The notes beneath the pieces are model-generated. The model was not told where the DNA came from, did no database searches, and saw only the letters and a program-made list of their open reading frames with translations. Both the position numbers and the translations under genes were made by a program. A stretch of DNA of 64,000 bases from Armatimonadota bacterium (GTDB lineage Bacteria; Armatimonadota; UBA5829), in assembly GCA_050948905.1 (NCBI GenBank), contig JBMNES010000001.1, forward strand, positions 821,448 through 885,447, written 5' to 3'. Below, piece by piece: positions 7,788 through 59,279 of this stretch. How positions within the stretch are numbered: the stretch's first letter is position 1; every line of letters begins with the position of its first letter.

Positions 7788-10310
7788 TTAGTGCGATTTG
7801 GACAGCTTGATCGGCCCGGCCATCCTTATGCCAGGTGCGGTGAAAACCACCGTGCCCGACATCGAATAACCCTGAGTCCTCCGAACGACCCTGGTGTCGA
7901 CCGTCAGCGCGCCGAATTCCGACGATGTCGCCTTCAGCGTAAACTGACCATTATTGTAGGTATATCTCGCCGGCACCGACTCGGAATCCTTGCCCGCGCT
8001 TATTTTCAGCGATGCGTTGCCCACACCGGTAGAAGATTGTTGCACATTCAAAGTAGTGAGCAGGGTTTTGCCTTTCAGTTGTGCAAATATCTCGCCGAGA
8101 TCGCAGCCCTGGGCTTTCGGGTTCTTTATTTGAGATACGTCCACATCAGAAAACACGGTGGTCCCGGTCCATTTGCCGCCGATTTCTTCCGGCAGAGGAG
8201 CTTCCGCCATTACGTCGTCGACAACGCCCTTGATATAGTCCTCACCCCATTGCGCCATAATATTATTTACAAAATCCGAAGCGCTGGCACCTAACGCTTC
8301 GGCGAGGCCTCGCAAATTGTTGGTGAACTGTTTTTTTGCGAAGTCGTGCAGCGATTCGCGCAGTGTTCCCTTAAAATTGGCCCAACCCGCGGCTGCACCT
8401 GTCTTAATGAGGTCTACAAGCTCTGCTCTGATGGCTTTGTTGGATTGATTGAGTGCAGCCAGCATAGCCTCCACCGAAGCCAGATGGGCTTTCTTCATGG
8501 GCATTTGCAAGCCTTGCTTTAATCCGGATTTGATAATAGCTTTTGTCTCGGAGGCTTCGAGATTAGCAGCAAGACCTGATACAAAGTTCCATGCCCTGTT
8601 TGCCGATAGCCAGCCGCCTTTCGCGAGACCTTTTGTAAAGGCCGGGAGTTGGGTGCCCTTAATAATGAGCTTGCTGCCGCCGAGGGCAGAACTGCCTATT
8701 TCTATTGCACCAATGACATAATCCGACGCGCTGGCGTCTCTGTTTGAAACCAGAGCGATGCCCTTACCCAGGCCGGTGAACATACCAGAAGCTGCTTTTG
8801 CGACCTTGCCGACTCCCCAGCTTGTCCAACCCTCGCCGACTACGGCTTCCACGCCTTTGCTGGTCACATACTCAGCGCCTTCGTCCCAGTAGTCGAAATA
8901 GTCTTTGGCGTCGCGCAGAATTTTTGACCCAGACTTGTTGGCCTCCCAATTTTTGACGATCTGCATTGAGTTGGCCTTCATATCCTCCCAAATTTCAGAG
9001 CACGAGTTGCCATAGTATATGCCTGTGCCGACCCGACTGATATTTTTTACAGCCGCTCCGGCAACATCAAGCCCCGCTCCGAGAACGCTCTGCACGCCGT
9101 GTACAGAGCTTTTAACGCCGTTCCAGCCCTTAGACAGCCATCCTTCCTCTGATTTAGCAGAAGCGGGAGTCGATAACGGCGCCCTGGCAGCGAGATAGGC
9201 ATTGGTATAATTATTCGGGGGTTCTGCGGCGTAGGCGCAATTGCCAGGTCTGCCCAAGTCCGTCACCTCGATCAGCTTGTCTTTCGGCACAGAGCTTAGA
9301 TACGCCTCAAAATCTGCGCTAAACTTGTCGAATTTCTCCAGATACTCCTTTGTGAACTCCAGGCTCTTAGCGTCGAGATATTTGTTCGGTTTGATCTCCG
9401 CCAGCTTCTGCTTAAGATCAGGCATCGACTTTCGCATAAAATCGACTGCCGCATACGCGTAGTAATAATCCGCCGTGGCGAGTTGTTTGAAGCCGTAGTC
9501 GACCTTAGCCATACCGGCCTGCACATCTTTTATGCGGCCCTTCAGCGAGTCCAGTTTAGCCATATCGCTATCGAGCTTTTTGGTAGCATCGACGACCTTG
9601 GCGTTTTTAGAGCTGGACAACTGGTCGACAGCCATTCCCGCGCTCATCGCGATCGTATCGATATCCTGAAGATAAAGCGCAGCCAACTGCATCGCTTTGG
9701 CAGTTTTTGCATATTGCATGAAACTGCGTGTGAAGTCGTTTTCAGAGTCAGTTTTGATATTCTTATACTCGACTTCTGTAAGAGTCTCTAAAGTCCAGAT
9801 GCGCAGCAGTTCCCTGGTCACGTCCAATGCGAATGTTTTAGCTGACGGTTCGTTGTTATAACAAACCGTCATATAGCTCATAAGCTGATCTCGCAGCTTG
9901 CCGACATCATCCTTCAGAGTGAGTGCGTTTTTGGCGAGATCATCCGAAGCTGCAATGATCTGCTCGACTTTCTGTGCTTTGACTTCGTCGAATTCGTAAG
10001 TCTGCTGGCCTGCGGGCAGAGGCGCTCCGGCATAAAACGGGGAGCAGGAGAGCAGCATCCCCATATCGTCGCCTTTGACAAGAGCCGCCGCGGTCGCCTC
10101 ATCGGCCTTAAAGTCGAGTGTAAAAGGCTCTTTGACCTTCGGCCCTTTGTTTCCGAAGAGCAGAACCCCGCCCCAAATCACGGCGGTCACTAGTATTATT
10201 GCAACAAGAACAAGCAGCACCCTCTTCACAGTTACAATCTCCTTTTTCATGATGCGAACAAGCAAAGCAAGGTCGTTAATCAGATTATCGCCTGAAACTA
10301 TCAAGCGCAT
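7788..10310 (-). CDS. Large hypothetical membrane-anchored secreted protein (820-840 aa; alternative start at 10250 MKKEIV), coiled-coil and Ala/Gly/Lys-rich, immediately upstream of lgt in the same orientation
   Basis: N-terminal TM VLLVLVAIILVTAVIWGGVLLF; no recognisable catalytic motif; 8-nt gap to lgt. Confidence 0.55.
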   Translation of the reverse strand: MRLIVSGDNLINDLALLVRIMKKEIVTVKRVLLVLVAIILVTAVIWGGVLLFGNKGPKVKEPFTLDFKADEATAAALVKGDDMGMLLSCSPFYAGAPLPAGQQTYEFDEVKAQKVEQIIAASDDLAKNALTLKDDVGKLRDQLMSYMTVCYNNEPSAKTFALDVTRELLRIWTLETLTEVEYKNIKTDSENDFTRSFMQYAKTAKAMQLAALYLQDIDTIAMSAGMAVDQLSSSKNAKVVDATKKLDSDMAKLDSLKGRIKDVQAGMAKVDYGFKQLATADYYYAYAAVDFMRKSMPDLKQKLAEIKPNKYLDAKSLEFTKEYLEKFDKFSADFEAYLSSVPKDKLIEVTDLGRPGNCAYAAEPPNNYTNAYLAARAPLSTPASAKSEEGWLSKGWNGVKSSVHGVQSVLGAGLDVAGAAVKNISRVGTGIYYGNSCSEIWEDMKANSMQIVKNWEANKSGSKILRDAKDYFDYWDEGAEYVTSKGVEAVVGEGWTSWGVGKVAKAASGMFTGLGKGIALVSNRDASASDYVIGAIEIGSSALGGSKLIIKGTQLPAFTKGLAKGGWLSANRAWNFVSGLAANLEASETKAIIKSGLKQGLQMPMKKAHLASVEAMLAALNQSNKAIRAELVDLIKTGAAAGWANFKGTLRESLHDFAKKQFTNNLRGLAEALGASASDFVNNIMAQWGEDYIKGVVDDVMAEAPLPEEIGGKWTGTTVFSDVDVSQIKNPKAQGCDLGEIFAQLKGKTLLTTLNVQQSSTGVGNASLKISAGKDSESVPARYTYNNGQFTLKATSSEFGALTVDTRVVRRTQGYSMSGTVVFTAPGIRMAGPIKLSKSH

Positions 10311-10465
10311 TAGTCGATTAGTGTGAGATTATCGACACGCAGCACAATTTAGCGATGATGGCAGATTAAATAAATAACGGGAACACGGGTTTGGCATAAT
10401 GCGTAGTAATAGATGAAGATCGAACTGAAATCATCTTCTTCTCCTTTCACCTCCTTCCTCTGACC

Positions 10466-10497
10466 CTGGCTTTGAGACCGGCCGGGGTCTTTTTTTG
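10466..10497 (+). terminator. Hairpin AGACC-GGCCGG-GGTCT followed by T7, plus-strand oriented, with no annotated plus-strand gene upstream
   Basis: Stem-loop plus TTTTTTT tract read in the sequence. Confidence 0.4.
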
Positions 10498-10499
10498 TC

Positions 10500-11798
10500 T
10501 CACATACGCTCGACAATTAAGGGTGGCACGTGAGCCGAATCAGCGAGGAGATAGCAGCCCTTTATAATCTCTTCAGCCTGATGTATTTTGGATTCGTCGC
10601 TGCCGTGAATGGTCGCGATCGTGTCCCCAATCTCCACTTTATCGCCGATCTTCTTTTCTACGACCACACCTGCAACCGGATCTATTCGATCCTCTTTGCG
10701 CTGCCTGCCTGCGCCTAACGCGGAGGCCGCCTTACCGACACCCGCTGTGTCTATTTCGCTGACCACGCCTGCCGATTCTGCTGTCACATCTTTAATAATC
10801 CTGGCCTCTCCCATTAATGCGGGATTATACACAACGTCCGCATCTCCGCCCTGCGCACGGATGATTTGGCCGAATTTCCCTAAAGCCGCGCCACTGAATA
10901 GAGCATTTTTAGCCAAACTCCTGGCCGTTTCTATGCAACATTCAGGGTCCGACAGGTTGAGCACTGCTGCGCAAAGTTCTATGCAAAGCTGCGTCAAGTC
11001 CGCTGGGCCATGACCGGAGAGCGTATCAATCGCCTCCCGCACCTCCAGAGAATTGCCGACAGCACGACCGAGGGGCTGGTTCATATCCGTGATAATAGCC
11101 CCCACTTTTCGGTTTAAATTTCTGCCAATGGAGATCATCGTGCCAGCCAGTTCCCTCGCGTCGTCGAGGTCCTTCATAAAAGCGCCGTTTCCTACTTTAA
11201 CGTCCAGCAGTATCACATCCGCCCCACACGCGATTTTTTTGCTCATGATGCTGGCCGAGATAAGGGGGATGCTGTCGACTGTAGCGGTGACGTCTCGCAG
11301 GGCGTAGATCATCTTGTCTGCTGGGGCCATATCGGCAGTCTGGCCGGCTATAGCGGCTCCGATTTTGTTGATTTGCTTAATAAAACCGTTAAGCGAGAGT
11401 GAGGTATTAAACCCGGGGATGGATTCCAGCTTGTCGACAGTGCCGCCTGTAAAACCCAGCCCTCTGCCTGACATCTTCGGCACTTTCAGGCCACAGGCCG
11501 CCAGCATCGGCACTATCACCAGAGTGGTCTTATCCCCTACCCCGCCAGTGCTGTGCTTGTCGACCTTAATACCCTTTATCTTCGACAGATCTAGCGCATT
11601 GCCGCTGTCGACCATTGCAGAAGTAAGTTCGGCAGTCTCAGCAAAGTTCAAGCCGCGGATATAGGCGGCCATCAAAAACGCCGACATCTGATAATCAGCG
11701 ATCTCACCGGCAGTATATCCAAGCACCAATCGTCGAATATCCTCGCCGGAAAGCTCTAAACCGTCTCGTTTGGCGGCTATTATGTCCGGTATTGTCAT
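10500..11798 (-). CDS. deoA: Thymidine / pyrimidine-nucleoside phosphorylase
   Basis: HSTGGVGDKTTL motif; 432 aa; typical N-terminal dimerisation segment. Confidence 0.85.
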   Translation of the reverse strand: MTIPDIIAAKRDGLELSGEDIRRLVLGYTAGEIADYQMSAFLMAAYIRGLNFAETAELTSAMVDSGNALDLSKIKGIKVDKHSTGGVGDKTTLVIVPMLAACGLKVPKMSGRGLGFTGGTVDKLESIPGFNTSLSLNGFIKQINKIGAAIAGQTADMAPADKMIYALRDVTATVDSIPLISASIMSKKIACGADVILLDVKVGNGAFMKDLDDARELAGTMISIGRNLNRKVGAIITDMNQPLGRAVGNSLEVREAIDTLSGHGPADLTQLCIELCAAVLNLSDPECCIETARSLAKNALFSGAALGKFGQIIRAQGGDADVVYNPALMGEARIIKDVTAESAGVVSEIDTAGVGKAASALGAGRQRKEDRIDPVAGVVVEKKIGDKVEIGDTIATIHGSDESKIHQAEEIIKGCYLLADSAHVPPLIVERM

Positions 11799-11804
11799 AG
11801 TGGC

Positions 11805-12255
11805 TTAAGTATATCAGCTCGGTTGGCCGTTGTCATTCCGCAGGATGACGAAAAAATAACGCGAAAGCGCGAAAGAAGCGAAAGCCAGAAATAATGGATG
11901 TGCTATCGTAATTTGGGTGGCCAGAGAATGCTTGATCGGACTTCGAACATCAGACCTCGGATATCGAAGAGAAAATGCAGTGGCCGGGCCTCTGTCCCGG
12001 CCATCTTCTGGCTACGAGGCGGCGATTCGGAGATCACCACCTATCAATTTATGAGAACCGACAACCGTGAACCGTAAACCGAAAACCGAAAAAGCAGATT
12101 TCTCGCTGCGCTCGAAATGACATAGGGTTGCGACGTGATCCTGCGACTTCGCGCAGGATGACATAATTGGAGGATGGAAGTTAGAGGTTAGAGGTTAGAG
12201 GTTGGTGAGGCGGCGATTCGGAGATCGCCGCCTATCTACAGGCAAGATCGCCTAA
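11805..12255. repeat. Composite REP/MITE-like intergenic repeat cluster (site 1). Modules: GTCAT-hairpin units, a ~130-nt unit shared with site 3, a GGCCGG..CCGGCC hairpin, GGCGGCGATTCGGAGATCGCCGCC palindromes, an (AACCG)n tract and (GTTAGAG)3
   Basis: Direct sequence comparison with 18962-19175, 16330-16575, 21668-21808, 38975-39175, 43495-43745 and 49085-49170. Confidence 0.8.
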
Positions 12256-12259
12256 CTTA

Positions 12260-13147
12260 TTACAGCGCCTCGGGTTTGCCGCTTTGGGTCGAACGCTCTG
12301 CTGCGTCAAGCATCGCGGTGACCTCCAGCGCGTCTTCCAATGAAGCCGCGGGTTCGGCTCCGTTGAAGAACTCCACTACTTTAATGAGTTGATCCGGATA
12401 CAGCCTGCTGTTATCGCAGACATACGGCGCGGCCTTGCCTTTTTCTCGCAGGCAGCCGCCATAAGCCGACGAACCTTCGGTGAGCTCCACTATGCCCCTG
12501 CGATTGTTCGGGTATTCGATCGTACATACAACCCCGGCTTTATCTCTTCTGGCAAAGACTCCGATAGCCCCCTGGCCCATCGCCCTCTCCAGCATCTCGA
12601 ACGCGTGCACTCCATACCAGACTATCGAGCTACCCGCAGGCGCCTTCCCCAACGCGCCGTAAGTATAGGCATAATCCGCATTGGGGATAGCTTTGCACGA
12701 CTCAATCAGCCCCGGCACGAATCGTAGCGACGATGCTGAAAATACCCTAAGGTTGTTCTCTTTAGCCAGTTTATATATTGCGCGAGCGTTCGTTGTGTTA
12801 TCCGCCATCGGCTTGTCGAGGAAGATCGGCTTTCCCAAAGGCACGCACTTGCGGAAATATTCCAGATGATATGCGGGGTCATTGATTTCGAGCATAATAG
12901 CCTCGCATTCGGCCACTGCCTCGTCGAAATCTTCGGTCACCGTCACGCCCCATTCTTCCAACTGCTTTTGGCGCCCGTCCAGCCCGTTTTTATCCTGAAA
13001 CGGGGTCTCGAACCTCATACAACTGATAACGCGAGCGCCGTCCACCTTTTGATCAGCAGCGACATCCGGCGCCTGCAAGCACTTCGTAAACGCAACCGAA
13101 TGGCTGGTATCCAGCCCCACCATACCGATTCTGATTTCTCCAGACAT
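12260..13147 (-). CDS. Gfo/Idh/MocA family oxidoreductase (NAD-binding)
   Basis: IRIGMVGLDTSHS Rossmann N-terminus; family core motifs. Confidence 0.7.
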   Translation of the reverse strand: MSGEIRIGMVGLDTSHSVAFTKCLQAPDVAADQKVDGARVISCMRFETPFQDKNGLDGRQKQLEEWGVTVTEDFDEAVAECEAIMLEINDPAYHLEYFRKCVPLGKPIFLDKPMADNTTNARAIYKLAKENNLRVFSASSLRFVPGLIESCKAIPNADYAYTYGALGKAPAGSSIVWYGVHAFEMLERAMGQGAIGVFARRDKAGVVCTIEYPNNRRGIVELTEGSSAYGGCLREKGKAAPYVCDNSRLYPDQLIKVVEFFNGAEPAASLEDALEVTAMLDAAERSTQSGKPEAL

Positions 13148-13190
13148 TATCTATCCTCCAGGGCAATCTGCATCTGACGAAAGGTTAGGC

Positions 13191-14237
13191 TCAAGCGGCG
13201 CATTTGTCAAGCGCCTGCCTGATTCTATCGATAGCCTCTTTTACCTCGTCCTTGTCAGTGTGTCTGCAAGTGACCATTCTAACAGCCTTCGGAGCGCGTG
13301 GGCTTACTATCACGCCGGCATCGCCGAGCTTTGCTATGATTTCCTCAGTGGAAAGGCCAGTGCCGGTGTGGTCGACGTTGATGATATTGGTCTGCACTAT
13401 ATCCATATCGACTGATAAGCCAGGAATGGTGTTCAGACCTTCGGCCAGCAATCTGGCGTTGTCGTTATCCTCAGCCAGTCTGTCGATCATTTTTTCAAGC
13501 GCGATTATACCAGCAGCCGCGATAACCCCGGCCTGCCTCATTCCTCCGCCGATTCGTTTTCTGTGGAACCTGGCGCGCTCGATGAACTCGGTGCTGCCAG
13601 CCAAAATGGAGCCGACCGGGCAGCATAGGCCTTTTGATAGACAGAATTGAATGGAGTCGACCTCCGCCGCATATTCCGACGCCGGCACCCCGGCCGCTAT
13701 CGCTGCGTTGAATATCCGTGCGCCGTCGAGGTGAATCGCGAGACCGTGGTCTCGCGCTACTGAGCAAAGTTGTTTATGCAAATCCAGAGGAGTCACCCGG
13801 CCGCCGCTGCGATTGTGTGAGTTTTCCAAACACAGCAGGCGCGGGGTGGCGTAGTGGACATCAGGTTCACGTATGGTCTCCGATAGCACACGCGGGTCGA
13901 TAAGCCCGTTATTGCTTGGTACAGGCAAAGGGAAGAACCCAGCCACGCTGGCCAGCCCGCCGCCTTCGTTGCAGAAAATATGCGCCGTCGGATCGACCAG
14001 CAACGCCTCGCCAAGCCCGCTTGAGTGTGCCATAAGAGCGACCAGGTTTCCCATAGTGCCGCTTGCCACGAACAAGGCGGCCTGCTTGCCGATCTTTTGC
14101 GCGGCCAGTTTTTCGAGCTGGGCCACAGTTGGGTCCTCACCGTAAACGTCGTCGCCGAGCGGCGCATTTCGCATAGCATCAAGCATTTCTTCGGTGGGCA
14201 GGGTCTGTGTATCGCTGCGAAAGTTGAGTATCTCCAT
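13191..14237 (-). CDS. ltaE: Low-specificity L-threonine aldolase (PLP-dependent)
   Basis: FRSDTQTLPTEEMLDAM and DDVYGEDPTV N-terminus typical of the threonine aldolase family. Confidence 0.8.
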   Translation of the reverse strand: MEILNFRSDTQTLPTEEMLDAMRNAPLGDDVYGEDPTVAQLEKLAAQKIGKQAALFVASGTMGNLVALMAHSSGLGEALLVDPTAHIFCNEGGGLASVAGFFPLPVPSNNGLIDPRVLSETIREPDVHYATPRLLCLENSHNRSGGRVTPLDLHKQLCSVARDHGLAIHLDGARIFNAAIAAGVPASEYAAEVDSIQFCLSKGLCCPVGSILAGSTEFIERARFHRKRIGGGMRQAGVIAAAGIIALEKMIDRLAEDNDNARLLAEGLNTIPGLSVDMDIVQTNIINVDHTGTGLSTEEIIAKLGDAGVIVSPRAPKAVRMVTCRHTDKDEVKEAIDRIRQALDKCAA

Positions 14238-14408
14238 GATGGCCTCGGTTTGTTGGTCTAATTCAGATGAAAATTATATCACAGCACATAAAAAGCCACG
14301 TACGGCCGGAACAGTTTTGACCTCAATATGATTTTAGTTTTTTCGGGTGTCGCGTTTCCCTTTCCCTTCCCGGCAGGAATCATCGACACGTTCCGCGAAG
14401 GCATCGAT

Positions 14409-15137
14409 ATGAGAACCGTAATTTTATCCATTGTGGCAACGTTTTTATTGGGGTGTATGTGTATGAGCGATGCTGATCTCAGGCCGATTTACCGGTGCCC
14501 TAAAATAGACAAGGCTCCGGTGATAGACGGCAATCTCGATGACGAGGCTTGGAAAGTAGCTCCCCCTGTGCAGCTAGTCCTCTCCGAAACCGGAAAGCCC
14601 GCCACAAAGCGCACAATCGCGAGGATGTGTTGGGACGATCAGAACCTGTATATCTCATTTGACTGTGACGACGAAGACCTTTGGAACGATTATAAAGAGC
14701 GGGATGATCCTGTTTATAACGAAGAGGTCGTGGAGGCGTTTTTATCTCCGGATTGCAGCCTTAAGCACTATTATGAGATAAACGTAAGTCCTCGCAACGT
14801 GGTCTTTGATGCTTCCATATACGATCCTGTCAACGGCTCACCGCAACCCCCGACTTCCACGGCCTGGGATTGTGTTGGGTTACAGACGGCTGTGATAGTC
14901 GATGGCACGTTGGATTGTCGCACAGATAAAGACAAGGGCTTTAAGGCGGAATTAGCTATACCGTTCGCTGGATTGGGCAGAGATACGCCGAAGTCCGGGG
15001 AGCGATGGCGGGGCAATTTGTTCAGAATCGACCTCAGCCCGAAGCCCGCCGAGTTTCAGGCATGGTCGCCTACCCTCGTCAAGCCTGCGGCATTTCATAT
15101 CCCGGACAGATTCGGGACTATATTCTTTGTGAAGTAG
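14409..15137 (+). CDS. Lipoprotein with carbohydrate-binding family 9-like (CBM9/DOMON-like) domain
   Basis: Lipobox LLGC; DGNLDDEAWKVAPP and QNLYISFDCDDEDLW motifs resembling CBM9. Confidence 0.55.
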   Translation: MRTVILSIVATFLLGCMCMSDADLRPIYRCPKIDKAPVIDGNLDDEAWKVAPPVQLVLSETGKPATKRTIARMCWDDQNLYISFDCDDEDLWNDYKERDDPVYNEEVVEAFLSPDCSLKHYYEINVSPRNVVFDASIYDPVNGSPQPPTSTAWDCVGLQTAVIVDGTLDCRTDKDKGFKAELAIPFAGLGRDTPKSGERWRGNLFRIDLSPKPAEFQAWSPTLVKPAAFHIPDRFGTIFFVK

Positions 15138-15230
15138 CGGTCGAAATCTTGTCGTATTAGCGGAACTGCTCTACAATAAGGAACAATTGGTTGATAAGGC
15201 ACCTGATGGGTGCGCAATGAGGTAGATTAA

Positions 15231-16316
15231 ATGGGGAATTCGTCTGAACTGAGAGTCGGTATAATCGGCTGTGGCGGTATTGCCGGGGGCAAGCACCTGC
15301 CGAGTTTGACCAAAATCGACGCTGTGAATATGGTGGCGTTTTGCGACATCATCGAGAGTCGCGCTGCTGAGAAGGCGGCTGCATACGGCGTAGAAGGTGC
15401 ACGGATCTATACGGATTATCGCAAGATGCTGGAGGAGGAGAAACTCGACGTAGTTCATGTTTGTACGCCGAATAACAGCCACTCCGAGATAAGCGTAGCA
15501 GCTCTGGAAGCTGGGTGCCATGTGATGTGCGAGAAGCCGATGGCCAAAACAGCCGAGGGCGCGCGCAAAATGGTCGAAGCCGCGAAGCGAACCGGGAAGA
15601 AGCTGACTATCGGTTATCAGAACCGCTTCCGGGCGGACTCGAGATACCTGAAGGCGTTCTGCGATGAGGGCGGACTTGGAGAGATTTATTTCGCCAAGGC
15701 ACACGCGCTTCGAAGGCGCGCTGTGCCGACGTGGGGTGTATTCCTTGATGCTGATGCCCAGGGCGGAGGGCCGCTGATCGATATCGGGACCCACGCGCTT
15801 GACCTGACGCTGTGGATGATGAACAACTACGAGCCTGAGTTCGCGGTAGGCAACACATATCGCAAGCTCGGCGATCGAGAGAACTGCGCGAACCCGTGGG
15901 GGCCGTGGGACCCCAAAAAGTTCACGGTTGAGGACTCTGCTTTCGGATATGTCCATTTCAAGAATGGAGCCACCGTGTTTTTGGAGTCAAGCTGGGCTTT
16001 GAACGTGCGACAGAGCGGCGAGGCCATCTGCACCCTTTGCGGAACAGAGGCCGGCGCGGATATGTGGGACGGGCTGCAGATTAACGGGGAGAGATTCAGC
16101 AAGCTCTACGTGGAAAGAGCCCAGCTCGAACCGGGCAGTGTGCCGTTCTATTCCGGAGATGACGAAAGAGACGCCGATGTCGAGGCGAAAATGTGGATCG
16201 AAGCCATCCTGCAGGACAAAGCCCCGGTGGTATTGCCGGAGCAGGCCCTCGTGGTGACAGAGATTCTTGAGGCGATCTATAAATCCAGCGAGACCGGGAA
16301 ACCGGTTTACTTCTAA
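15231..16316 (+). CDS. Gfo/Idh/MocA family oxidoreductase
   Basis: LRVGIIGCGGIAGGKHLP Rossmann; EKPMA motif. Confidence 0.85.
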   Translation: MGNSSELRVGIIGCGGIAGGKHLPSLTKIDAVNMVAFCDIIESRAAEKAAAYGVEGARIYTDYRKMLEEEKLDVVHVCTPNNSHSEISVAALEAGCHVMCEKPMAKTAEGARKMVEAAKRTGKKLTIGYQNRFRADSRYLKAFCDEGGLGEIYFAKAHALRRRAVPTWGVFLDADAQGGGPLIDIGTHALDLTLWMMNNYEPEFAVGNTYRKLGDRENCANPWGPWDPKKFTVEDSAFGYVHFKNGATVFLESSWALNVRQSGEAICTLCGTEAGADMWDGLQINGERFSKLYVERAQLEPGSVPFYSGDDERDADVEAKMWIEAILQDKAPVVLPEQALVVTEILEAIYKSSETGKPVYF

Positions 16317-16329
16317 GGTTAATAAGCCT

Positions 16330-16575
16330 GCGGCCTGACTTCGCTTTGGCTGCAAATTATGTTAGTCCATAGGTGGCGATTTTCCTAATCGCCACCTATC
16401 TATATTTGCCTTTCCGCGCCGCCCTTTGTCATTCCGCGCGTAGTCGCGGAATCCACGGGGTTGCAAAAGCGAAACGAGATCCTGCGACTTCGCGCAGGAT
16501 GACTATAAATGGTGCGCAGGATGACAGTATTGGTTACGGCGAGTGTGTAGAGGCCGGTTTCTATCCCGGCCCGTT
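16330..16575. repeat. REP/MITE-like repeat cluster (site 2): perfect 13-bp hairpin ATAGGTGGCGATT/AATCGCCACCTAT, GTCATTCCGCGCGTAGTCGCGGAATCCAC, GATCCTGCGACTTCGCGCAGGATGAC, GGCCGG-TTTCTATC-CCGGCC
   Basis: Inverted repeats read directly; modules shared with the other sites. Confidence 0.8.
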
Positions 16576-16637
16576 TGTATATCAAGGAGAAAGTGGCCGA
16601 GACGGAGATCGGCCACTACATTTTCGACGTTCCTTGC

Positions 16638-17897
16638 CTACTTCGCCACTACGTTCAACCCCTCTTGCACATCCCCAGTCGATTCATTGGTGATCTGTTT
16701 TTCACCTTTGAACCTGTTGCCGGATATGACAGCAGTGGTGACGTCCTTGCCAAGGTGGATGTCCTTGCGCTCCATCCAGAACCGGCAGTTGGAGATGTTT
16801 ATGTCCCCCGAAAGTGCATCGATCGTGTAAAGGTCAGGGTGTCCGCCCTGGTTCAGGAATGTGCACTGGCTGAAGCTGACGGTGCCTTTGCCGTCGATTT
16901 TGGCTATCTGAGACGCAGGGCCCCAGAATGAGCAGTTGCCTAACTGCACGACACCGTTATGTGTGGCCGAGACCTCCATAAAGATATCGGTTTTGTTGTT
17001 ACCGACGAACTCGCCATTTGTGATAAGCAGTCCGGGTGGCTGGCAGTGGTCGACCAGTATCGCCCTGCCGCACCAGTCGGCTCCGATTCCGAGGAAGTTG
17101 CCATTGACCGAGCCGTCCGCATCTGCGGTAAAGTGATAACCCGTCTTCGCTCCGAATACGAACGTATTATGGACATACTCCCAGTCGGTGCGCTTGAACT
17201 GGAACGCGATTAAATTCTCTCCTATGTAGTTGATAAGATCGTCCCACTTCGGTATGCCTTCGGAACCTGCTCTGCCCCAGTAGTGCGGGTTGAAGTGGAC
17301 GTTTTCGATGCGGCCGATGTCGGTGCATTTGTCGATATGCACCCCGATTTTCAGCGGGCAGCCGAAGCAGTTGCGAATATAGTGTAATTCGTTTTTATAC
17401 TGACCGAAGTCGATGGCTTTGTAGGGGTTTACAAAGGTGCAGTCGATGACGCTGCCGTGCATTCCCTGGCCCTGGATAGTCCACGGATAGGCCAATGTAC
17501 CCGGAATGCGCTGTTCGGGATAGAAGAAAGTGATGCCCTTAACCGCGCTTGATGGGTTCAGCATAATGCACGGAGGGCCGTTTTCGTCTCCCTTGTCTGC
17601 GTAGACGAGAAATACCGTGCCATTGGATAGCTGTGCGTGATGCGGCGCCTCCCAGACTCCGGCGAGGGTGACGCCCTCCGGCACGTTGAGCGGCTTATCT
17701 ATCCGGTATTTGCCCGCTTCGAGTTGCACCACTCCACCGTGATTGGCCCCTGCGTAGTCGAGGGCTTTCTGGATAGCGACGGAATCGTCGGCGACTCCGT
17801 CAGCTTTGGCTCCGTAATCCTTCACGTTGACTGCAGCGCTGGCGCTAATCGCAAATAGCGCGCAGGCGGCTGCGGTTATAATTGTGGTAAAGTTCAT
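16638..17897 (-). CDS. Secreted right-handed beta-helix protein, pectate lyase superfamily (Pectate_lyase_3 / GH28-55-like)
   Basis: GGAGG RBS; signal peptide MNFTTIITAAACALFAISASA; N-terminal VKDYGAKADGVADDSVAIQKALDYA motif typical of this family. Confidence 0.7.
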   Translation of the reverse strand: MNFTTIITAAACALFAISASAAVNVKDYGAKADGVADDSVAIQKALDYAGANHGGVVQLEAGKYRIDKPLNVPEGVTLAGVWEAPHHAQLSNGTVFLVYADKGDENGPPCIMLNPSSAVKGITFFYPEQRIPGTLAYPWTIQGQGMHGSVIDCTFVNPYKAIDFGQYKNELHYIRNCFGCPLKIGVHIDKCTDIGRIENVHFNPHYWGRAGSEGIPKWDDLINYIGENLIAFQFKRTDWEYVHNTFVFGAKTGYHFTADADGSVNGNFLGIGADWCGRAILVDHCQPPGLLITNGEFVGNNKTDIFMEVSATHNGVVQLGNCSFWGPASQIAKIDGKGTVSFSQCTFLNQGGHPDLYTIDALSGDINISNCRFWMERKDIHLGKDVTTAVISGNRFKGEKQITNESTGDVQEGLNVVAK

Positions 17898-18020
17898 AGC
17901 CTGTCCTCCAAGTAAACTCAGCAACAGTATAAGTGAGATAGCACCGGCTGGCAATAGGCCGGGCAGGGAACTCGCGGGTGGGTAGAACGTAATTAATGCA
18001 AAGACCGAACAGGTGATTAA

Positions 18021-18959
18021 ATGGATAAGCCAAACGAGGTTCGCATTTACGATGCGCAGACTGGAGAAGTGAAGACCTTGCCGAAGGTTGTTAAGACTGA
18101 GACGGAGTGGAAAGAGATACTGACTCCTGAGCAGTTTAGAATCACCCGGCTAAGAGGCACTGAGCCGCCGGGCTCCGGCAAATGCGATGTTCCCTCTCGG
18201 CAGCAGCTCGGTATATATCAATGCGTCTGCTGCGGCACGGATTTGTTTAAACACGAGCACAAATACGAGTCCGGCAGCGGCTGGCCGAGCTTCTGGGAGC
18301 CGGTGTCTGATCTGAACCTGATTTTAGAGGTGGATGAATCTTTTGGGATGTATCGCACCGAGGTTATGTGCGCCCGCTGCGATGCTCACCTTGGTCACGT
18401 TTTCGACGACGGCCCTCCGCCCACGGGCAAGCGTTATTGCATAAACGCTGCCTCGTTGCGTCTATCGCAGGACGAGGCTGTTAATCGCGAAACAGCGATC
18501 TTTGCGGCGGGTTGTTTTTGGGGAGTAGAGTCGGCGTTCAGAGAGTTGATCGGCAAAGGGGTCATCTCAACCAGGGTCGGCTATACCGGCGGCCACACCG
18601 ATCATCCCACATATCAGTCCGTCTGCGCCGGTGGGACAGCTCACGCTGAGGCGGTTGAGGTGGTCTTTGATCCCAATAAGATAACCTACCAGCAGCTTTT
18701 GGATCTGTTCTGGAGCATTCACGACCCAACTACTCTCAACAGGCAGGGGTTGGATATAGGGGATCAGTACCGCTCAGCAATATTTTATACCTCGGCTGAG
18801 CAGAAAGAGGCAGCCGAAAAATCTAAGGAACAGCTTGCACAATCTGGAAAATTGCCCAGGCAGATTGTGACTGAGATAACCGAGGCGACGGAGTTCTGGG
18901 AGGCCGAGGAATATCATCAGCAATATAAAGATAAACGGGGCTATGGGGGCGCCAGATAA
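18021..18959 (+). CDS. msrAB: Bifunctional peptide-methionine sulfoxide reductase, MsrB-MsrA fusion
   Basis: MsrB CxxC..CxxC zinc motifs with GWPSF; MsrA GCFWG motif in the C-terminal half. Confidence 0.85.
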
Positions 18960-18961
18960 CG

Positions 18962-19175
18962 GGGAAGGGAAAACGCGAAAGAGCGAAAGGAGCGAAAGTT
19001 AGAAATTTAGATATGCTTTCGTATTTTGGGTGACCTAAGAAGGCTTGATCGGACTTCGAACATCAGACCTCGGACCTCGAAAAAAGCAGATTTCTCGCTT
19101 CGCTCGAAATGACAGGGGGTGGGCACTGGTTATGAGGCGGCGATTCGGAGATCGCCGCCTATCTTATTTAACATA
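18962..19175. repeat. REP/MITE-like repeat cluster (site 3): ~130-nt unit ~80% identical to 11850-11990, plus the GGCGGCGATTCGGAGATCGCCGCC palindrome
   Basis: Direct comparison with site 1. Confidence 0.8.
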
Positions 19176-19194
19176 ACCGACAACACAATACTGG

Positions 19195-20181
19195 TTATCC
19201 TCTTCGTCTCAAAACAGCCGAGCCTGCAAGCGCTATCAGCGAGCATAATCCGGCTATTGATGACGGCTCGGGTACCTGTTCCAGCTTAACAATGTAGTTG
19301 TAATTGTTCGCATAGCCATCGGTATAGTAATTGACTCCTGCGTAGATGCCACCTGTCTCGGCGTCTATGCGCAGGAAGGTGATCGCGGGGGATTCAACAT
19401 CCTCGCGGCTCAAAGTGGCCAGGGTCTCAATCGAAACTCCGTCCCAGCGCTGCAGCTTAGCCTGGCCGCCGGAGTTATCGCTGAACAGCAGCCTTCCCAG
19501 ACTATCAAATGCCAAACCTGCTGCTCCGTTGACCGCGATAGCTGCATCAGCGTCAGCGATTCCCAGCACATCGCCTTCAATCGCGCCCTGAACTTTGGCT
19601 GAACTCCACATATAAATATTCGTCGCAAATGGGTAGTTGCTCGGGCAATAATATAGATTTCCAGCAGCATCAAGCGCGACAGGACCAGAGTAACCCGCTG
19701 CGGTTGCCACCGGCGTTGTGTTATTGCTGGCATCCAGAGCATAGACCGTGTTGCCAGCGACTACAAATGCATTGTTGCCGTAGAAGTCGATGTCGTAGTT
19801 CCAGTCGAGTCGAGTTACGTCGTTGACGACGGCGGTAACAGGGTCGAATGTGCGGACCATACTGCTGGTATAATCGTTGTCTGCGAAATAGACCAGCCCA
19901 TTGTTATATTTCACAAACGATCCGAAGACCGAGGCCGAATAAGTGTAAAGAGTCTGCACATCGGCGCCGGATTGGGTGATCTCGCGCACGCTGTGGCCGT
20001 CATTTATCACGTAATTTCCATTGGGAAGCACATCAAAGCCACCCAAAAATGCCCCAGCAGGCAGAGAGAGAAACAGGTCGGTGCAGTTATAGGTGGCAGA
20101 GTCCAGCAACCCCGCTCCCCAACTCGCCGTCGCAGATAGAATAATTGCTGCGATGATAATCAGTTTCGTAGTTTTTTTCAT
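19195..20181 (-). CDS. PEP-CTERM sorting-domain protein with repeated beta-propeller-like blades (GNLYY / GRLLFSD / GLVYFAD)
   Basis: C-terminal VPEPSSIAGLCSLIALAGSAVLRRRG; N-terminal signal peptide. Confidence 0.8.
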   Translation of the reverse strand: MKKTTKLIIIAAIILSATASWGAGLLDSATYNCTDLFLSLPAGAFLGGFDVLPNGNYVINDGHSVREITQSGADVQTLYTYSASVFGSFVKYNNGLVYFADNDYTSSMVRTFDPVTAVVNDVTRLDWNYDIDFYGNNAFVVAGNTVYALDASNNTTPVATAAGYSGPVALDAAGNLYYCPSNYPFATNIYMWSSAKVQGAIEGDVLGIADADAAIAVNGAAGLAFDSLGRLLFSDNSGGQAKLQRWDGVSIETLATLSREDVESPAITFLRIDAETGGIYAGVNYYTDGYANNYNYIVKLEQVPEPSSIAGLCSLIALAGSAVLRRRG

Positions 20182-20203: not shown

Positions 20204-21664
20204 TTAGTTTGTTTTGATGTCGTTTTGAGGGTCAATCACCCTGACGACAACTGAACCGTCGTCATCGCGGTCGCATATCACGGTAGCCGATAGATATGGC
20301 GCGCCGCTTACCGAATATGGGCCGCTCCAAACCAGTTTTGCGCTTGCAGAACCGTCGTTGATCTCGCAATAGCCGGGGCCTTTGGAGCATACCCTGCCCC
20401 AAACCCGCACCCTCATTCCGTAGGCGAGGTCGCTGGACAGGGTTTTGAGGTTCATTCCGACAGGCTCAATTTGCGCAGCGCCCGGTTCGGTGCAGGTCCA
20501 CATCGGGTCCGGAAATGTGAATCTGCCGGATGTTTTGGAGAGGTGACCAGTGATGGTCATTTTGTCGCCGACTGCCACTATTTTGCTGTCGACTGCGATG
20601 CTGGTGTCGTAGATGACTTTCATAGCGGCCGATCTGTTCGGGGCTTCGATGAAAAACGAATCCGGCAGGACAGCGGTTACGATAGCCTCTGTAATCAAAG
20701 CATATTCGCCATCTGGCAGTTTCTTTACTTCGCCGATGGAAAGCGCGGGACGACACGCCGCCACTGCGTCGATTTCGGCTGATATTTCGCCTAATCCGGG
20801 GAAATAGTCGCCGCTGACCGCATCCGTCAGCCGCACATATTTGAACCAGCTTATATTTGCCTTGATCTCGTTGCCATAGGAATCAATAGCCGGGACGCCG
20901 GGTGCACTTTGCAGCACTGCGTCGGCTATATCGAACGCGTCACCTCCTCCGGAAACATAGTCGAAACGTTCTGTATTGAACCCGCTGGGCACGCTCGGGC
21001 GATCAGGCACGGTATATAGCTCCTCCGCGCTGCGTGTCACCCAACTGAACGGGTTTTTGCTGCCGGCAGTCGGCAGTTCGATGGTGGGCGTGCAATCTGC
21101 ATAGCCGTAAAGTTTTGTTGACGAAAACCCGGTATCCGAGGACGGCACATAGGGGTTGGAGCCGGGCGCAGGGATTAGATCATTGGGCAGGATATTCGGC
21201 CGAATCAGATACCACTGCTCTCCGTCCTGGCTGATCTCGACAAAGGCCGGCTCCTGCCATCTGAAGTTCGGGTCAGCATATAGCGGCAGGTTTTCCGTCA
21301 TACTCAGCCGAAAATACGCATTACCGAATACTATGAAATCCAGACCGTATGGGTTTCGAGGGTCGTCTATAACAGGTGTCGAGAAACCGACCGCCACCGA
21401 AGCCGTCGTGCCTGCAGCGTTACGGTCGCCGAGTGAGACGCAGTAGCCATTATCATAGCTGTGCGCAGGCTCGTAAACCTGCCCGCCAGTCGGGGCGCCC
21501 AGGCATCTGAACGGGTCGTTATACAGAGGGTTGTTCACAAACTGCCCAGTGCCCGGAATATACCAGCTCTGCTGAGTTATATCCGCAAACCAGGCTTTGG
21601 CATTCACGGAAGCCGCAGTTGCAAAAGTCAAACATAAGATTATCGCAAGAGTAATTCGTTTCAT
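20204..21664 (-). CDS. Secreted hypothetical protein (~487 aa from MKRITL), no recognisable family
   Basis: Signal peptide MKRITLAIILCLTFATAASVNA; GAGG RBS; the ORF-track 5' extension runs into a repeat element and is probably not coding. Confidence 0.6.
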   Translation of the reverse strand: MKRITLAIILCLTFATAASVNAKAWFADITQQSWYIPGTGQFVNNPLYNDPFRCLGAPTGGQVYEPAHSYDNGYCVSLGDRNAAGTTASVAVGFSTPVIDDPRNPYGLDFIVFGNAYFRLSMTENLPLYADPNFRWQEPAFVEISQDGEQWYLIRPNILPNDLIPAPGSNPYVPSSDTGFSSTKLYGYADCTPTIELPTAGSKNPFSWVTRSAEELYTVPDRPSVPSGFNTERFDYVSGGGDAFDIADAVLQSAPGVPAIDSYGNEIKANISWFKYVRLTDAVSGDYFPGLGEISAEIDAVAACRPALSIGEVKKLPDGEYALITEAIVTAVLPDSFFIEAPNRSAAMKVIYDTSIAVDSKIVAVGDKMTITGHLSKTSGRFTFPDPMWTCTEPGAAQIEPVGMNLKTLSSDLAYGMRVRVWGRVCSKGPGYCEINDGSASAKLVWSGPYSVSGAPYLSATVICDRDDDGSVVVRVIDPQNDIKTN

Positions 21665-21667
21665 TTT

Positions 21668-21808
21668 CCAAACCTCAATATAGCTTCGCACCTCGAACTT
21701 CCGACCTCGAAAAAGCAGACTTCTCACTTCGTTCGAAGTGACATAGTTGTTGACTACGTTCACAATCGTAATTTCGAGATGGCGATCTCCGAATCGCCAC
21801 CCCAAAGC
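21668..21808. repeat. REP/MITE-like repeat (site 4) lying inside the riboswitch-controlled operon, between the DUF1559 gene and the secreted-protein gene
   Basis: TCACTTCG-TT-CGAAGTGA hairpin; GGTGGCGATTCGGAGATCGCCATC palindrome (minus-strand sense, includes G-U wobble). Confidence 0.75.
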
Positions 21809-21810: not shown

Positions 21811-22653
21811 CTATTTATTATCAAAAAGCGAGTTATCATCCCCGCCAAAATAGCCAATATTGTGCTTCTCATTGTTGCCGCCATAGAAGAAGTTCGGTGG
21901 CCTGGTGAAACTCATCTTTTCCGCGCTTACATGTCCATCACACCAGCCGACATTGGCCACCCCGTTGTGCCTGAAATGAATGCTCGGAGTGGTGGGGTAG
22001 GCTGTCCCATCCGGGGTTACGTGATACGGCGGTTCGGCGAATGAGTACTGCATCGGCCCGCCGTCGCTGGTAATCGCAGCGTCGGTGAACATTACCGTGC
22101 GGGCGGGATATGCGATGTCTCCCGTGCGAGAGGCTATTTTGTTAGATTCAGGCGGATAATTGCGATACGCCGTCCCGCCGACATAAGCCTGGTTATATCC
22201 AAACCCGCCGCAACCCGCCTCGAACGTGCCCTTTAATTGAACCGCGGTCGGGCAGATTTTCAAGCCACCGGATCTGCCGAAATACACCCACAGAGGGCCT
22301 TTATTCGCCTCGAATTCCGCGCCGACACGCGGCCTTACCCCGTGCCACCGATGCAGATTCGGCCCGGTGATATCTGATGCGGCTGGGACATAGGTTCCGG
22401 AGTAGTCGTCGGAATAGGCCAGGTTTGCGGCGAGAAGCTGTTTGAGCTGTGCGGCGCAACGGGTTTTTCTGGCGGATTCTTTAGCCACTCCGAACACAGG
22501 AAATAATATGGCGGCCAGAATCGCGATGATGGCGATGACCACCAGCAGTTCGATGAGTGTGAATCCGCTGTACAAACAGAAACGGGCCTCTCGCCCATTT
22601 CGGATATTTTTCAGGACGGAAGCCCGGTTTATTCGGGGTGTTGCGTCCGACAT
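21811..22653 (-). CDS. Prepilin-type N-terminal cleavage/methylation domain protein of the DUF1559 / H-X9-DG family (type II pseudopilin-like)
   Basis: G^[24 protein letters not shown] class III signal; C-terminal [13 protein letters not shown] (H-X9-DG); GGAGG RBS. Confidence 0.85.
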
Positions 22654-22659: not shown

Positions 22660-22844
22660 CTCCGAAGATGCTGCGCTAATGATGCGAAAGGGCAGGTCTT
22701 CTGGCTTCCGGATCGCTCTAGCCGGCTACCTTCCCAGTCCTTTTAGACCAGTGGATAACGCCGGTTCGTCCCCGGTTACAGCGGCGGGCCCGCGACGGTT
22801 TTTCACCGTCTTCCCTTAACCCAAATCGCCAAATATTCAGTTGC
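22660..22844 (-). ncRNA. Cobalamin (AdoCbl) riboswitch in the 5' leader of the DUF1559-secreted protein-PEP-CTERM operon
   Basis: Minus-strand RNA carries the cobalamin riboswitch core elements: GGGAAG; GGUGAAAAACCGUC hairpin; GCGGGCCCGCCGCUGUAA; CCACUG..GGGAAGG; B12 box AGCCAGAAGACCUGCC. A CAUCUU[CGGAGGC]AAGAUG hairpin sequesters the SD and AUG. Confidence 0.85.
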
Positions 22845-22850: not shown

Positions 22851-22879
22851 AGTATAACAAGGAAGCGGAGTCAAGTCAA
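22851..22879 (-). promoter_or_regulatory. Sigma70-like promoter for the riboswitch transcript (minus strand): TTGACT-N17-TATACT
   Basis: -35 at 22874-22879 and -10 at 22851-22856 on the minus strand with 17-nt spacer; riboswitch begins ~7 nt downstream. Confidence 0.6.
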
Positions 22880-22934
22880 TGGCATTTTGTCGATTCAACC
22901 GAGTCTATTTTACTGCTCAATTCGATGAATCGCG
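22879..22934. repeat. ~55-nt conserved element, copy A (ATGGCATTTTGTCGATTCAAcCGAGTcTAtTTTACTGCTCAATTCGAtGAATCGCG). It has two dyad-symmetric boxes, abuts the -35 of the riboswitch promoter and overlaps the last codons of the DUF3343 gene
   Basis: 52/56 identical to 25745-25800; it is read in different frames in the two copies, so it is conserved at the nucleotide level and does not encode a conserved peptide. Confidence 0.75.
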
Positions 22935-38974: not shown

Positions 38975-39175
38975 ATATAAAAGACGCCAGGCGGCTGGTT
39001 CGAACTTCAGACGGCTGATTTCGGACATCGAAAAAGCAGATTTCTCGCTGTGCTCGAAATGACGGGGATGGGTCCTCGAAATGGCGGGAAATGTTGTGGG
39101 GTGGCGATTCGGAGATCGCCACCCATCATAAAACTGGACAGACAAGACGGTATCTCGCTGCGCTCGAAATGACGG
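38975..39175. repeat. REP/MITE-like repeat cluster (site 5): two ATTTCTCGCTGyGCTCGAAATGAC units and a GGTGGCGATTCGGAGATCGCCACC palindrome
   Basis: Direct comparison with the other sites. Confidence 0.8.
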
Positions 39176-39255
39176 AGTATGATTGATAGTGGCCGTGTCT
39201 CTATCCTGATCAGTGAGACTTGTGACGCCATATAACATAACTGAACGGAGTTGCG

Positions 39256-43494: not shown

Positions 43495-43745
43495 TTATTT
43501 CCACTGAGAAGCATGGGCCATTCCCCCTCAGTCATTTCGGCCCCTCTCCTCTGTCATTTCGGCCTTTCTCCTCTGTCATTTCGAGCGCAGCGAGAAATCT
43601 GCTTTTTTCGATGTCCGATATCCGAGCTTCGAAGCCCTCATAACTGTAGAATAGCCGGGACAGAGGCCGGCCACTACATTTTGCTATCGTTTCCCTTCCC
43701 CGTGGATTCCGCGGAATGACAGAGGGTGGCGAGAAATGACAAACC
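43495..43745. repeat. REP/MITE-like repeat cluster (site 6), including a tandem triplication of a ~20-nt CCTCTGTCATTTCGGCC unit
   Basis: Tandem repeats and the GTCATTTCGAGCGCAGCGAGAAAT and GGCCGG..CCGGC modules read directly. Confidence 0.75.
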
Positions 43746-49084: not shown

Positions 49085-49170
49085 TGTGGTCATCCTGCGC
49101 GAAGTCGCAGGATCACGTCCCGCCTGTGTTTTCTGTGGATTCCGCGACTGCGTGCGCAATGACAGAGCTT
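49085..49170. repeat. REP-like repeat (site 7): GTCATCCTGCGCGAAGTCGCAGGATCAC and GTGGATTCCGCGACTGCGTGCGCAATGAC
   Basis: Modules shared with sites 1 and 2. Confidence 0.75.
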
Positions 49171-59235: not shown

Positions 59236-59262
59236 CTGTGAGGTGGTGATCGCACGATCACC
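59236..59262. repeat. REP-like perfect palindrome GGTGGTGATCG-CA-CGATCACCACC between the SBP and ATPase genes of the ABC operon (site 8)
   Basis: Read directly; a variant of the GGYGGYGAT...ATCRCCRCC family that carries compensatory changes. Confidence 0.7.
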
Positions 59263-59279
59263 ACCCAGACTCATTTTCG

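Follow-up and report, generated by a model that had tools for sequence, protein, structure and literature searches.

The 64,000-nt stretch of Armatimonadota contig JBMNES010000001.1 analyzed here (the window) carries eight intergenic sites at which short palindromic modules recur: site 1 (11805-12255), site 2 (16330-16575), site 3 (18962-19175), site 4 (21668-21808), site 5 (38975-39175), site 6 (43495-43745), site 7 (49085-49170) and site 8 (59236-59262). These sites are probably mosaics of two unrelated classes of DNA hairpin, interspersed with filler. The first class, modules A, C and C', carries a GTC tag and is of the type recognized by the Ssn family of GIY-YIG nucleases; the second, modules B and D, is of the type of the repetitive extragenic palindromes (REPs) associated with REP-associated tyrosine transposases (RAYTs, or TnpA_REP). 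The filler would consist of a unit of ~110 nt, named E, and of short tandem repeats. Both nuclease systems are already known, and the window copies are new Armatimonadota members.

Chance expectations for the module patterns were obtained from dinucleotide shuffles of the window. The module A pattern TTTCTCGCTGCGCTCGAAATGAC (consensus AAAAAGCAGATTTCTCGCTGCGCTCGAAATGAC) has 5 matches with at most 3 mismatches against 0 expected, and a sixth, diverged copy lies at 21710-21742. Module B, GGYGGYGAT-N6-ATCRCCRCC followed by TATC, has 6 matches against 0.04 expected, with a longer palindromic variant at 16369-16399, while modules C (GTCATCCTGCGCGAAGTCGCAGGATCAC) and C' (GTCATTCCGCGCGTAGTCGCGGAATCCAC) give 5 matches against 0 expected. 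Module D reads AAAATGYAG-TGGCCGG..CCGGCCA. A preliminary description had given this element as a GGCCGG-N8-CCGGCC pair; the strict form GGCCGR-N8-YCGGCC does have 2 matches (0.03 expected), but only those, the copies at 11981-12003 and 43651-43682 being N7/N9 variants of AAAATGYAGTGGCCGG..CCGGCY. The 64 kb hold 7 copies of B and 4-5 of D. Perfect hairpins with a stem of at least 8 bp number 14, of which 11 are modules, against 5.5 in mononucleotide shuffles.

Unit E is shared between sites 1 and 3 at 85.6% identity across 111 nt, so that the common unit reported earlier stands, although its length is ~110 rather than ~130 nt. The modules total ~1.6 kb, or 2.5% of the window, which revises the previous figure of ~2 kb (3%) downward. 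The claim that eight intergenic sites are built from shared modules was borne out, as the shuffles never reproduced the modules and Pfam annotation of the neighboring genes placed all eight sites between genes.

Covariation is decisive for the A-type hairpins. Copies were collected without demanding complementarity at the variable positions, and 175 of 191 distinct copies nevertheless have all five outer pairs, these stems being of at least 11 types. In the 26-nt subset (66 distinct rows), 96.3% of the cells are paired, 6 of the 7 pairs have changed on both sides and 90 cells are compensated; none of 500 shuffles reaches this score, and slid registers collapse. The conserved design is a 5-bp stem, tandem G.A/A.G mismatches, two covarying base pairs and a GNA triloop. 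Among 462 A-type cells there is hardly any G.U pair, which fits a constraint acting at the DNA level. For the other modules, nearest-neighbor DNA folding supports the hairpins of C, C', B and D with z-scores of -3.8 to -5.7 (B, -12.7 kcal/mol, z -5.2; D, -9.1 kcal/mol, z -5.7).

Modules A, C and C' read (T/G)GTC-AT-stem-loop-stem-AT-C. An unpaired (C/T)GTC tag lies directly 5' of a stem opening with A-T and T-A in all copies; at 21717-21742 the sequence is GTCAC, compensated by a G on the opposite arm. A cytosine stands right after the stem (..GAAAT-C-T in A, ..GGAT-C-A in C, ..GGAAT-C-CAC in C'), and the non-palindromic flanks set the orientation. The positions of the tag, the stem start and the post-stem C coincide with those found critical by Ssn mutagenesis, in which the cytosine directly after the palindrome is critical for SsnA binding (PMC11893778). 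Chenal et al. 2025 (PMC11893778) named the nuclease family Ssn (cd10448) and its motifs NTS and Ssn-related motifs (SRMs). SsnA binds the motif as single-stranded DNA alone and cuts a few nucleotides upstream, ignoring double-stranded DNA, RNA and the reverse strand, and it reduces transformation by NTS-bearing DNA (PMC11893778). Judged by sequence, modules A, C and C' are SRMs, that is, members of the (C/T)GTC-tagged REP superfamily and putative homologs of the Neisseria NTS/dRS3 repeats.

The genomic distribution of module A provides further evidence. In a scan of one genome per species, its 23-mer occurs in at least 120 stretches from many phyla; hosts among the matches listed include Omnitrophica, Bacteroidota, Chloroflexota, Acidobacteriota, Nitrospirota, Thermodesulfobacteriota, Hydrogenedentota, Armatimonadota, Bacillota and Pseudomonadota. 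An inverted partner hairpin forms a doublet arm within 110 nt at 57 of the 132 matches listed, and other recurrent flank features are tandem reiteration of the tag-side half and clade-specific tails. Clustering of the open reading frames (ORFs) at these loci yielded one small-protein family lying against the hairpins, a GIY-YIG nuclease of ~95 aa, and a metagenomic GIY-YIG protein is 42% identical (E 2e-26) to a 94-aa SsnA homolog of Neisseria gonorrhoeae. The Ssn-type family comprises 3,504 clusters (50% identity) at E <=1e-10 among 1.84 billion representatives and has no sequence-level match in the PDB.

The ssn flanks were then surveyed in 80 metagenome loci sampled by protein alone, which gave 76 distinct genes, 73 of them scored. 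A sense tagged hairpin lies within 120 nt upstream of the ssn-like gene in 52 of the 73 (71%) and an antisense one downstream in 39 (53%); the gap to the start or stop codon has its mode at 1-7 nt, and hairpins occur at a local background of 0.6 per kb. In these loci from other organisms, ssn genes are enclosed by inverted copies of the same hairpins, which gives cassettes of 348-519 nt from tag to tag (0.35-0.5 kb). At locus L127 an exact module A 26-mer stands upstream of ssn, and the sole difference between module C and the hairpins of loci L184 and L193 is two G.A mismatches turned into G-C pairs. A tblastn search against plasmids and chromids found ssn in species with described CGTC repeats, and the repeats flank the gene each time: it is embedded in them in N. 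gonorrhoeae (in a dRS3 array), Azospirillum lipoferum, N. aromaticivorans and S. meliloti. The link between hairpin and GIY-YIG gene was re-derived here before the comparison with Chenal et al. 2025, and it is not a new discovery: that study had already established it, with SRMs near 71% of ssn homologs and a remark on the insertion-sequence-like NTS-ssnA-NTS layout (PMC11893778).

Two side observations concern the gene itself. On A. lipoferum 4B plasmid AZO_p3 (255109-256178, locus L211), ssn lies between sufB and sufC with CGTC doublets on both sides, and therefore inside a housekeeping operon. Gene callers often lengthen ssn ORFs upstream through the 5' hairpin, as seen at L084 and L126, and many database entries are 110-160 aa instead of ~95 aa and start with a translated repeat (e.g. 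..VISSEARNL...).

Two features of class 1 may go beyond the published literature. The first is a tandem-G.A subtype of the SRM, GTCAT-NNN-GA-NN-GNA-NN-GA-NNN-ATCT, which is very widespread and which the published SRM pattern, HGTCWYN(0-2)YYVSBRHN(0-5)WNVSBRGN(0-2)RNCYNB, under-detects. That pattern is an operational search tool derived from 29 genomes, not a definition; its single match in the window, at 32742-32770, lies inside a gene (0.42 expected by chance). The second is a regular half-site array of 2-5 tag-side units (GTCAT-NNN-GA plus pyrimidine-rich filler), with a period of 18-27 nt that is constant within each array. Such arrays always stand on the tag side of a full hairpin (e.g. 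43531-43574, L207 15640-15760, L019, L136, L139 and L192), and those of at least 3 half units number 24 across the loci compared; the Ssn paper makes no mention of tandem repeats or arrays (PMC11893778).

Because the tandem-G.A subtype is near-identical across many phyla and missed by the published pattern, and because the half-site arrays are so regular, it is conceivable, though rather doubtful, that this subtype marks a still-active, horizontally moving ssn cassette, a GIY-YIG-based mobile element of single-stranded DNA. The half-site arrays would then either record successive rounds of Ssn cutting and repair or serve as interchangeable 5' arms for one 3' arm; the split-hairpin cleavage seen in vitro fits the second idea. 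The window mosaics would in that case record an interplay of two hairpin nucleases, Ssn and RAYT.

The second class has a different tag. On the tag strand, D reads GTAG-TGGCCG..CGGCCA and B reads (G)ATAG-GCGGCGAT-CTCCGA-ATCGCCGC, both with the tag at the foot of a G+C-rich hairpin and a CTCCGN loop. The D tag is GTAG at 16593-16624 and 43651-43682 and GCAG at 11972-12003, the last copy resembling subclass 2.7 TnpA_REP REPs such as GTAGTGGCCGGCCTCCGTGCCGGC (Quentin et al. 2018, Table S1, PMC6006769). In a loop-anchored search of the loci compared, B was found only in the window and at loci L021 and L083 of a sister metagenome-assembled genome (MAG), GCA_964494345.1, which is syntenic with the window and has an Obg protein 96% identical; D was searched in the window only. 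Homologs of Obg also assign the window's organism to Armatimonadota. From these likenesses, B and D are putative GTAG/ATAG-tagged REPs of the RAYT/TnpA_REP type. As a separate observation, the class 3 TnpA_Y1 REPs of Legionella, Planctopirus and Solibacter, CCGAGCCGC-GA-CC-GTAA-GG-GA-GCGG (Table S1, PMC6006769), share the design and nearly the same core with the A-type SRM TTTC-GA-CC-GTA-GG-GA-GAAA, by convergence or shared ancestry.

Taken together, the following mechanism is proposed. When the tag strand becomes single-stranded, the class 1 hairpin would form, as is established for the family (PMC11893778), and by analogy a ~95-aa single-domain GIY-YIG Ssn protein (cd10448) would bind it and nick a few nucleotides 5' of the tag. 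In Neisseria, Ssn nicking restricts recombination of incoming transforming DNA (PMC11893778). The class 1 copies of the window, which would comprise two inverted doublets, several solo copies and a half-site array, may be gene-less derivatives (doublets and solo ends) spread by the Ssn system. Class 2 would be REPs of the kind processed by RAYT/TnpA_REP HUH nucleases. Both classes would pile up in permissive spacers and insert beside or into each other, as in the Neisseria intergenic mosaic elements (NIMEs). The copies are listed below by position, strand of the tag or unit, and identity.

11832..11849, plus: collapsed C'/C doublet remnant, GTCATTCCGC/GCAGGATGAC, with the outer tags kept and the interior gone (direct reading)
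11858..11968, plus: filler unit E, copy 1 (~110 nt), 85.6% identical to 18972-19081; its 3' part also precedes module A at sister-MAG locus L007
11972..12003, plus: module D, AAAATGCAG tag and hairpin TGGCCGGG-CCTCTGT-CCCGGCCA, a GT[AG]G-type REP; terminator-like on the minus strand
12018..12045, minus: module B, GGCGGCGAT-TCGGAG-ATCACCACC-TATC; two arm differences give G.T wobbles solely on the ATAG-tag (minus) strand
12089..12121, minus: module A (SRM-type), tag strand GTCATTTCGAGCGCAGCGAGAAATCTGCTTTTT
12135..12162, minus: module C (SRM-type), GTCATCCTGCGCGAAGTCGCAGGATCAC, head-to-tail with A; DNA fold -7.9 kcal/mol, z -3.8
12209..12236, minus: module B, preceded by three GTTAGAG repeats (12180-12200)
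16369..16399, no strand assigned: B-like perfect palindrome ATAGGTGGCGATT-TTCCT-AATCGCCACCTAT, terminator-like after the gene ending at 16316
16428..16503, no strand assigned: inverted SRM doublet, C' (plus), 19 nt, C (minus), GTCAT tags outermost, a REPIN-like or head-to-head dimer; folds as a single long hairpin, -21.8 kcal/mol, z -4.5
16513..16525, minus: extra tag-side half unit of C, TGCGCAGGATGAC (direct reading)
16552..16571, no strand assigned: D-like hairpin GGCCGG-TTTCTATC-CCGGCC
16593..16624, minus: module D, tag strand AAAATGTAGTGGCCGATCTCCGTCTCGGCCAC (family D8); DNA fold -9.1 kcal/mol, z -5.7
18972..19081, plus: filler unit E, copy 2
19081..19113, minus: module A, loop GAA
19136..19163, minus: module B; on the plus strand the strongest terminator-like site after msrAB
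21684..21742, minus: leader and module A variant GTCACTTCGAACGAAGTGAGAAGTCT, differing from the other A copies by two compensated changes in the stem
21778..21801, plus: module B in the opposite orientation, GATGGCGAT-CTCCGA-ATCGCCACC
39005..39063, minus: leader and module A, with an orthologous copy in the sister genome
39074..39085, minus: one tag-side half unit CCTCGAAATGGC, against five at this place in the sister genome
39100..39127, minus: module B, absent from the orthologous site of the sister genome
39141..39173, minus: decayed module A, inner stem arm no longer pairing
39186..39212, plus: degenerate D-like unit ATAGTGGCCGTGTCTCTATCCTGATCA, conserved in the sister genome
43531..43574, plus: two tag-side half units, GTCATTTCGGCC plus pyrimidine-rich filler, period 22 nt
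43575..43607, plus: module A, the sole copy with its tag strand on plus
43651..43682, minus: module D, tag strand AAAATGTAGTGGCCGGCCTCTGTCCCGGCTAT (family D8)
43702..43740, minus: collapsed C' GTGGATTCCGCGGAATGAC and a further half unit GCGAGAAATGAC (direct reading)
49089..49163, no strand assigned: inverted SRM doublet, C (plus), 18 nt, C' (minus), tags outermost, between pyruvyl-transferase and glycosyltransferase family 2 (GT2) genes
59242..59265, no strand assigned: B-like hairpin GGTGGTGATCG-CA-CGATCACCACC, between the substrate-binding protein (SBP) and ATPase genes of an ATP-binding cassette (ABC) transporter

Several results weigh against this two-class reading. For class 1, the window holds no ssn gene or remnant by tblastn or by a maximum-sensitivity profile search of its six-frame translations, and unit E or any other site was rejected as a decayed ssn gene on the same blank search. 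The published SRM pattern matches none of A, C and C', although it does match an NTS control. Nearest-neighbor DNA energies do not predict the module A hairpin (-2 kcal/mol, z +0.8); its case rests on the covariation and on the stability of tandem sheared G.A pairs and GNA triloops. Ssn/SRM function is known for Neisseria and not beyond, and the published assays cover motifs other than the tandem-G.A subtype, with Armatimonadota not mentioned (PMC11893778). For class 2, the B tag is ATAG or ATGG and not GT[AG]G, and no HUH/Y1 (RAYT-like) motif was found in 4,979 ORFs of the window and 120 module-A loci. The covariation of B is real but thin: in 10 aligned copies from the window and the sister MAG, 92% of the cells are paired, both partners have been exchanged in two pairs (C-G to T-A; 4 cells), and a score as high arises in 15 of 500 shuffles. 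The compensatory stem changes described previously are thus present in the stems, but the GGYGGYGAT palindrome itself offers slender evidence of them.

The gene context bears on a different explanation, in which the hairpins act primarily at the RNA level as intrinsic terminators, intra-operon stabilizers of mRNA 3' ends or small RNAs. Convergent genes flank sites 2 and 3 and co-directional genes flank sites 1, 4, 7 and 8; the placement of all of these except site 1 speaks for an RNA role. The two copies noted earlier as intra-operonic do stand between co-directional genes, site 4 at 146 nt beyond a DUF1559 gene and site 8 in the 93-nt spacer from the SBP to the ATPase gene. Site 8 resembles the REP that E. 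coli has between malE and malF. B and D hairpins with T-rich tails are also the top terminator-like matches at gene 3' ends in 11-23 kb. However, either orientation to the flanking genes is found among the copies, sites 5-7 have no terminator-like tails (site 5 lies after the lytR 3' end and site 6 between divergent gene starts), and Rfam gives no match at the repeat sites, either at the gathering threshold or at E <=1. The near-absence of G.U pairs and the binding of single-stranded DNA, not RNA, by SsnA (PMC11893778) argue in the same direction. Membership in a known RNA family was rejected, as Rfam yielded just a cobalamin riboswitch and two chance-level matches, away from the repeats. A primarily RNA-level function is therefore unlikely, and a secondary use of the B and D hairpins with T-rich tails at 3' ends, as terminators or mRNA 3' stabilizers, is plausible within the two-class mosaic.

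The preliminary description had instead treated the modules as one family with a single RAYT/IS200-like partner. The modules do co-occur in the same spacers, the D tag is the canonical GTAG, and the class 3 TnpA_Y1 REPs share with module A the succession of stem, tandem GA, 2-bp helix and loop. One REP or bacterial interspersed mosaic element (BIME) family moved by a single RAYT (IS200-like Y1 transposase) is nevertheless very improbable. There are two different tags, GTC-AT and GT[AG]G; A and C, pan-bacterial in distribution, are found flanking GIY-YIG ssn genes, whereas B is confined to this lineage among the loci compared; no Y1 motif lies near any of the 120 module-A loci; and in the study of Di Nocera et al. 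2013 (PMC3733652) CGTC repeats were not found to flank any tyrosine transposase. The earlier interpretation is thus partly supported. It was right in kind, seeing REP-like and structure-constrained elements, but it merged two systems and assigned the wrong enzyme to one of them, as the GTCAT hairpins belong, by sequence, to the Ssn/SRM system with its GIY-YIG nuclease and only B and D are RAYT-like.

The same description also called the repeats REP/MITE-like. The REP-like part holds, for palindromes in NIME/BIME-like mosaics. MITEs, or miniature transposable elements with inverted repeats, in the sense of internally deleted copies of a DDE-type insertion sequence, have very little in their favor beyond the doublets at 16428-16503 and 49089-49163, which look like terminal inverted repeats around a short spacer. 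Neither doublet is flanked by a direct duplication, and in the absence of such a target-site duplication the term does not fit; in addition, the arms are themselves hairpins with covarying stems, and what the full-length relatives carry is a gene for a GIY-YIG nuclease instead of one for a DDE transposase.

The repeats are real, yet they damage assemblies. An independent contig from a sewage metagenome (ENA) is 100% identical over 8021-19095, sites 1 and 2 included, which speaks against the assembly artefact raised at the outset. Short-read contigs L001 and L208 terminate in module A, and Logan contig L003 (2071-2350) follows the site 3 copy and then, within unit E, passes over to that of site 1. 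A strain polymorphism at site 3 was ruled out on this basis, L003 being a chimera that switches copies. That the sites are collapsed or chimeric repeats is the remotest of the explanations considered, for all the broken contigs and the L003 chimera, given the identical independent assembly, module A kept in place at site 5 of the sister genome from a different sample, and the same modules at further sister-genome loci. In practice, these repeats break and chimerize short-read assemblies of this lineage.

Comparison with the sister genome also reveals turnover. In the lytR-rsfS spacer (site 5), where module A is in place in both genomes, a B copy and one half unit of the window correspond to five tandem half units in the sister genome, which also has an additional 49 nt upstream; the B copy (39100-39127) is missing from the orthologous site, at locus L207. 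The 75-nt A+C unit of site 1 is 97% identical to the non-syntenic sister-MAG locus L007. Site 1 as a whole looks like a site 3 whose E-A junction has received D, B and a leader of AACCG repeats. At site 6, the sister-genome homology stops ~55 nt beyond the start of the rhamnosidase gene, and the gene downstream is a different one; an insertion was not accepted here, as with such an ending insertion and rearrangement are indistinguishable. The arrestin-like gene adjoining site 6 (43790-44743, plus strand), a bacterial protein matching Arrestin_N, Arrestin_C and Rgp1 (E 1e-20 to 1e-9), sits at this synteny break.

For annotation, the spacers are best labeled as SRM-type and REP-type repeats, and ORF calls across them are spurious, such as 38726-39238 and the TTG-extended start of gene 20204-21664. 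The true start of the ORF that apparently covers site 4 is the ATG at 21664 (MKRITLAIIL..., a signal peptide), and the upstream "codons" are translated repeats. This gene and the next (19195-20181) encode two secreted proteins without a Pfam match that follow, past site 4, the N_methyl/DUF1559 gene (21811-22653), directly upstream of which lies the cobalamin riboswitch (22674-22839, minus strand, 97.5 bits). These genes could be some kind of B12-regulated uptake or binding operon.

Other repeats of the window are separate from the hairpin modules. A 56-nt direct repeat, 93% identical (22879-22934 and 25745-25800, family D6), is not related to them, and its first copy begins at the ATG of ORF 22879-23295. 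A 197-nt direct repeat, 75% identical (52952-53148 and 53891-54087, family D1), falls within ORFs 52934-53860 and 53873-54769, neighbors on the same strand and possibly tandem paralogs. In the spacer upstream of the MurJ gene, a perfect hairpin AGCCCGCGATAATTGTCGCGGGCT followed by TATTTTTTT (52803-52826), with no relation to the modules, looks like an ordinary intrinsic terminator.

The closest known system for class 1 is NTS/SRM with Ssn (PMC11893778). The window modules share with it the (C/T)GTC tag, the A-T/T-A stem start, the post-stem C and the directionality, inverted repeats of the same sequences flank GIY-YIG genes of the cd10448 type, and both form intergenic clusters. They differ in the build of module A, where a 5-bp stem, tandem G.A, an inner helix of 2 bp and a GNA triloop stand instead of an 8-bp perfect stem, in the failure of the published pattern to match A, C and C', and in the lack of an ssn gene from the window. 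The CGTC-tagged REP superfamily, including Neisseria dRS3 (Di Nocera et al. 2013, PMC3733652), is alike in its TGTC variant, the A-T that takes up the first two positions of the stem, a tail resembling CCA (ATCCAC at the end of C'), the predominance of head-to-head dimers and the presence of GTAG repeats in the same genome. That study reported no associated enzyme and five phyla, whereas the module A 23-mer occurs in many more, and SRM/CGTC repeats are now documented in Armatimonadota.

Class 2 compares with the RAYT/TnpA_REP REPs and REPINs (Nunvar 2010; Bertels and Rainey 2011; Quentin 2018, PMC6006769) in the GTAG/GCAG tag of D, the G+C-rich hairpin, the CTCYGT loop near subclass 2.7, the restriction of B to one lineage among the loci compared and its presence or absence between sister genomes. 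Unlike those, B is tagged ATAG/ATGG, the copies are mostly single rather than in doublets, and no RAYT gene lies within the window. Since Ssn- and RAYT-type hairpins share mosaics here, the lineage offers a natural system for asking, outside Neisseria, whether the spread of repeats is driven by Ssn or whether Ssn does no more than restrict incoming DNA. As whole structures, the sites resemble the NIMEs of Neisseria and the BIMEs of E. coli, spacers in which several repeat families are interleaved and tagged hairpins recur; they are set apart by the organism, by their filler units and by the sharing of the mosaics between two nuclease-linked hairpin classes.

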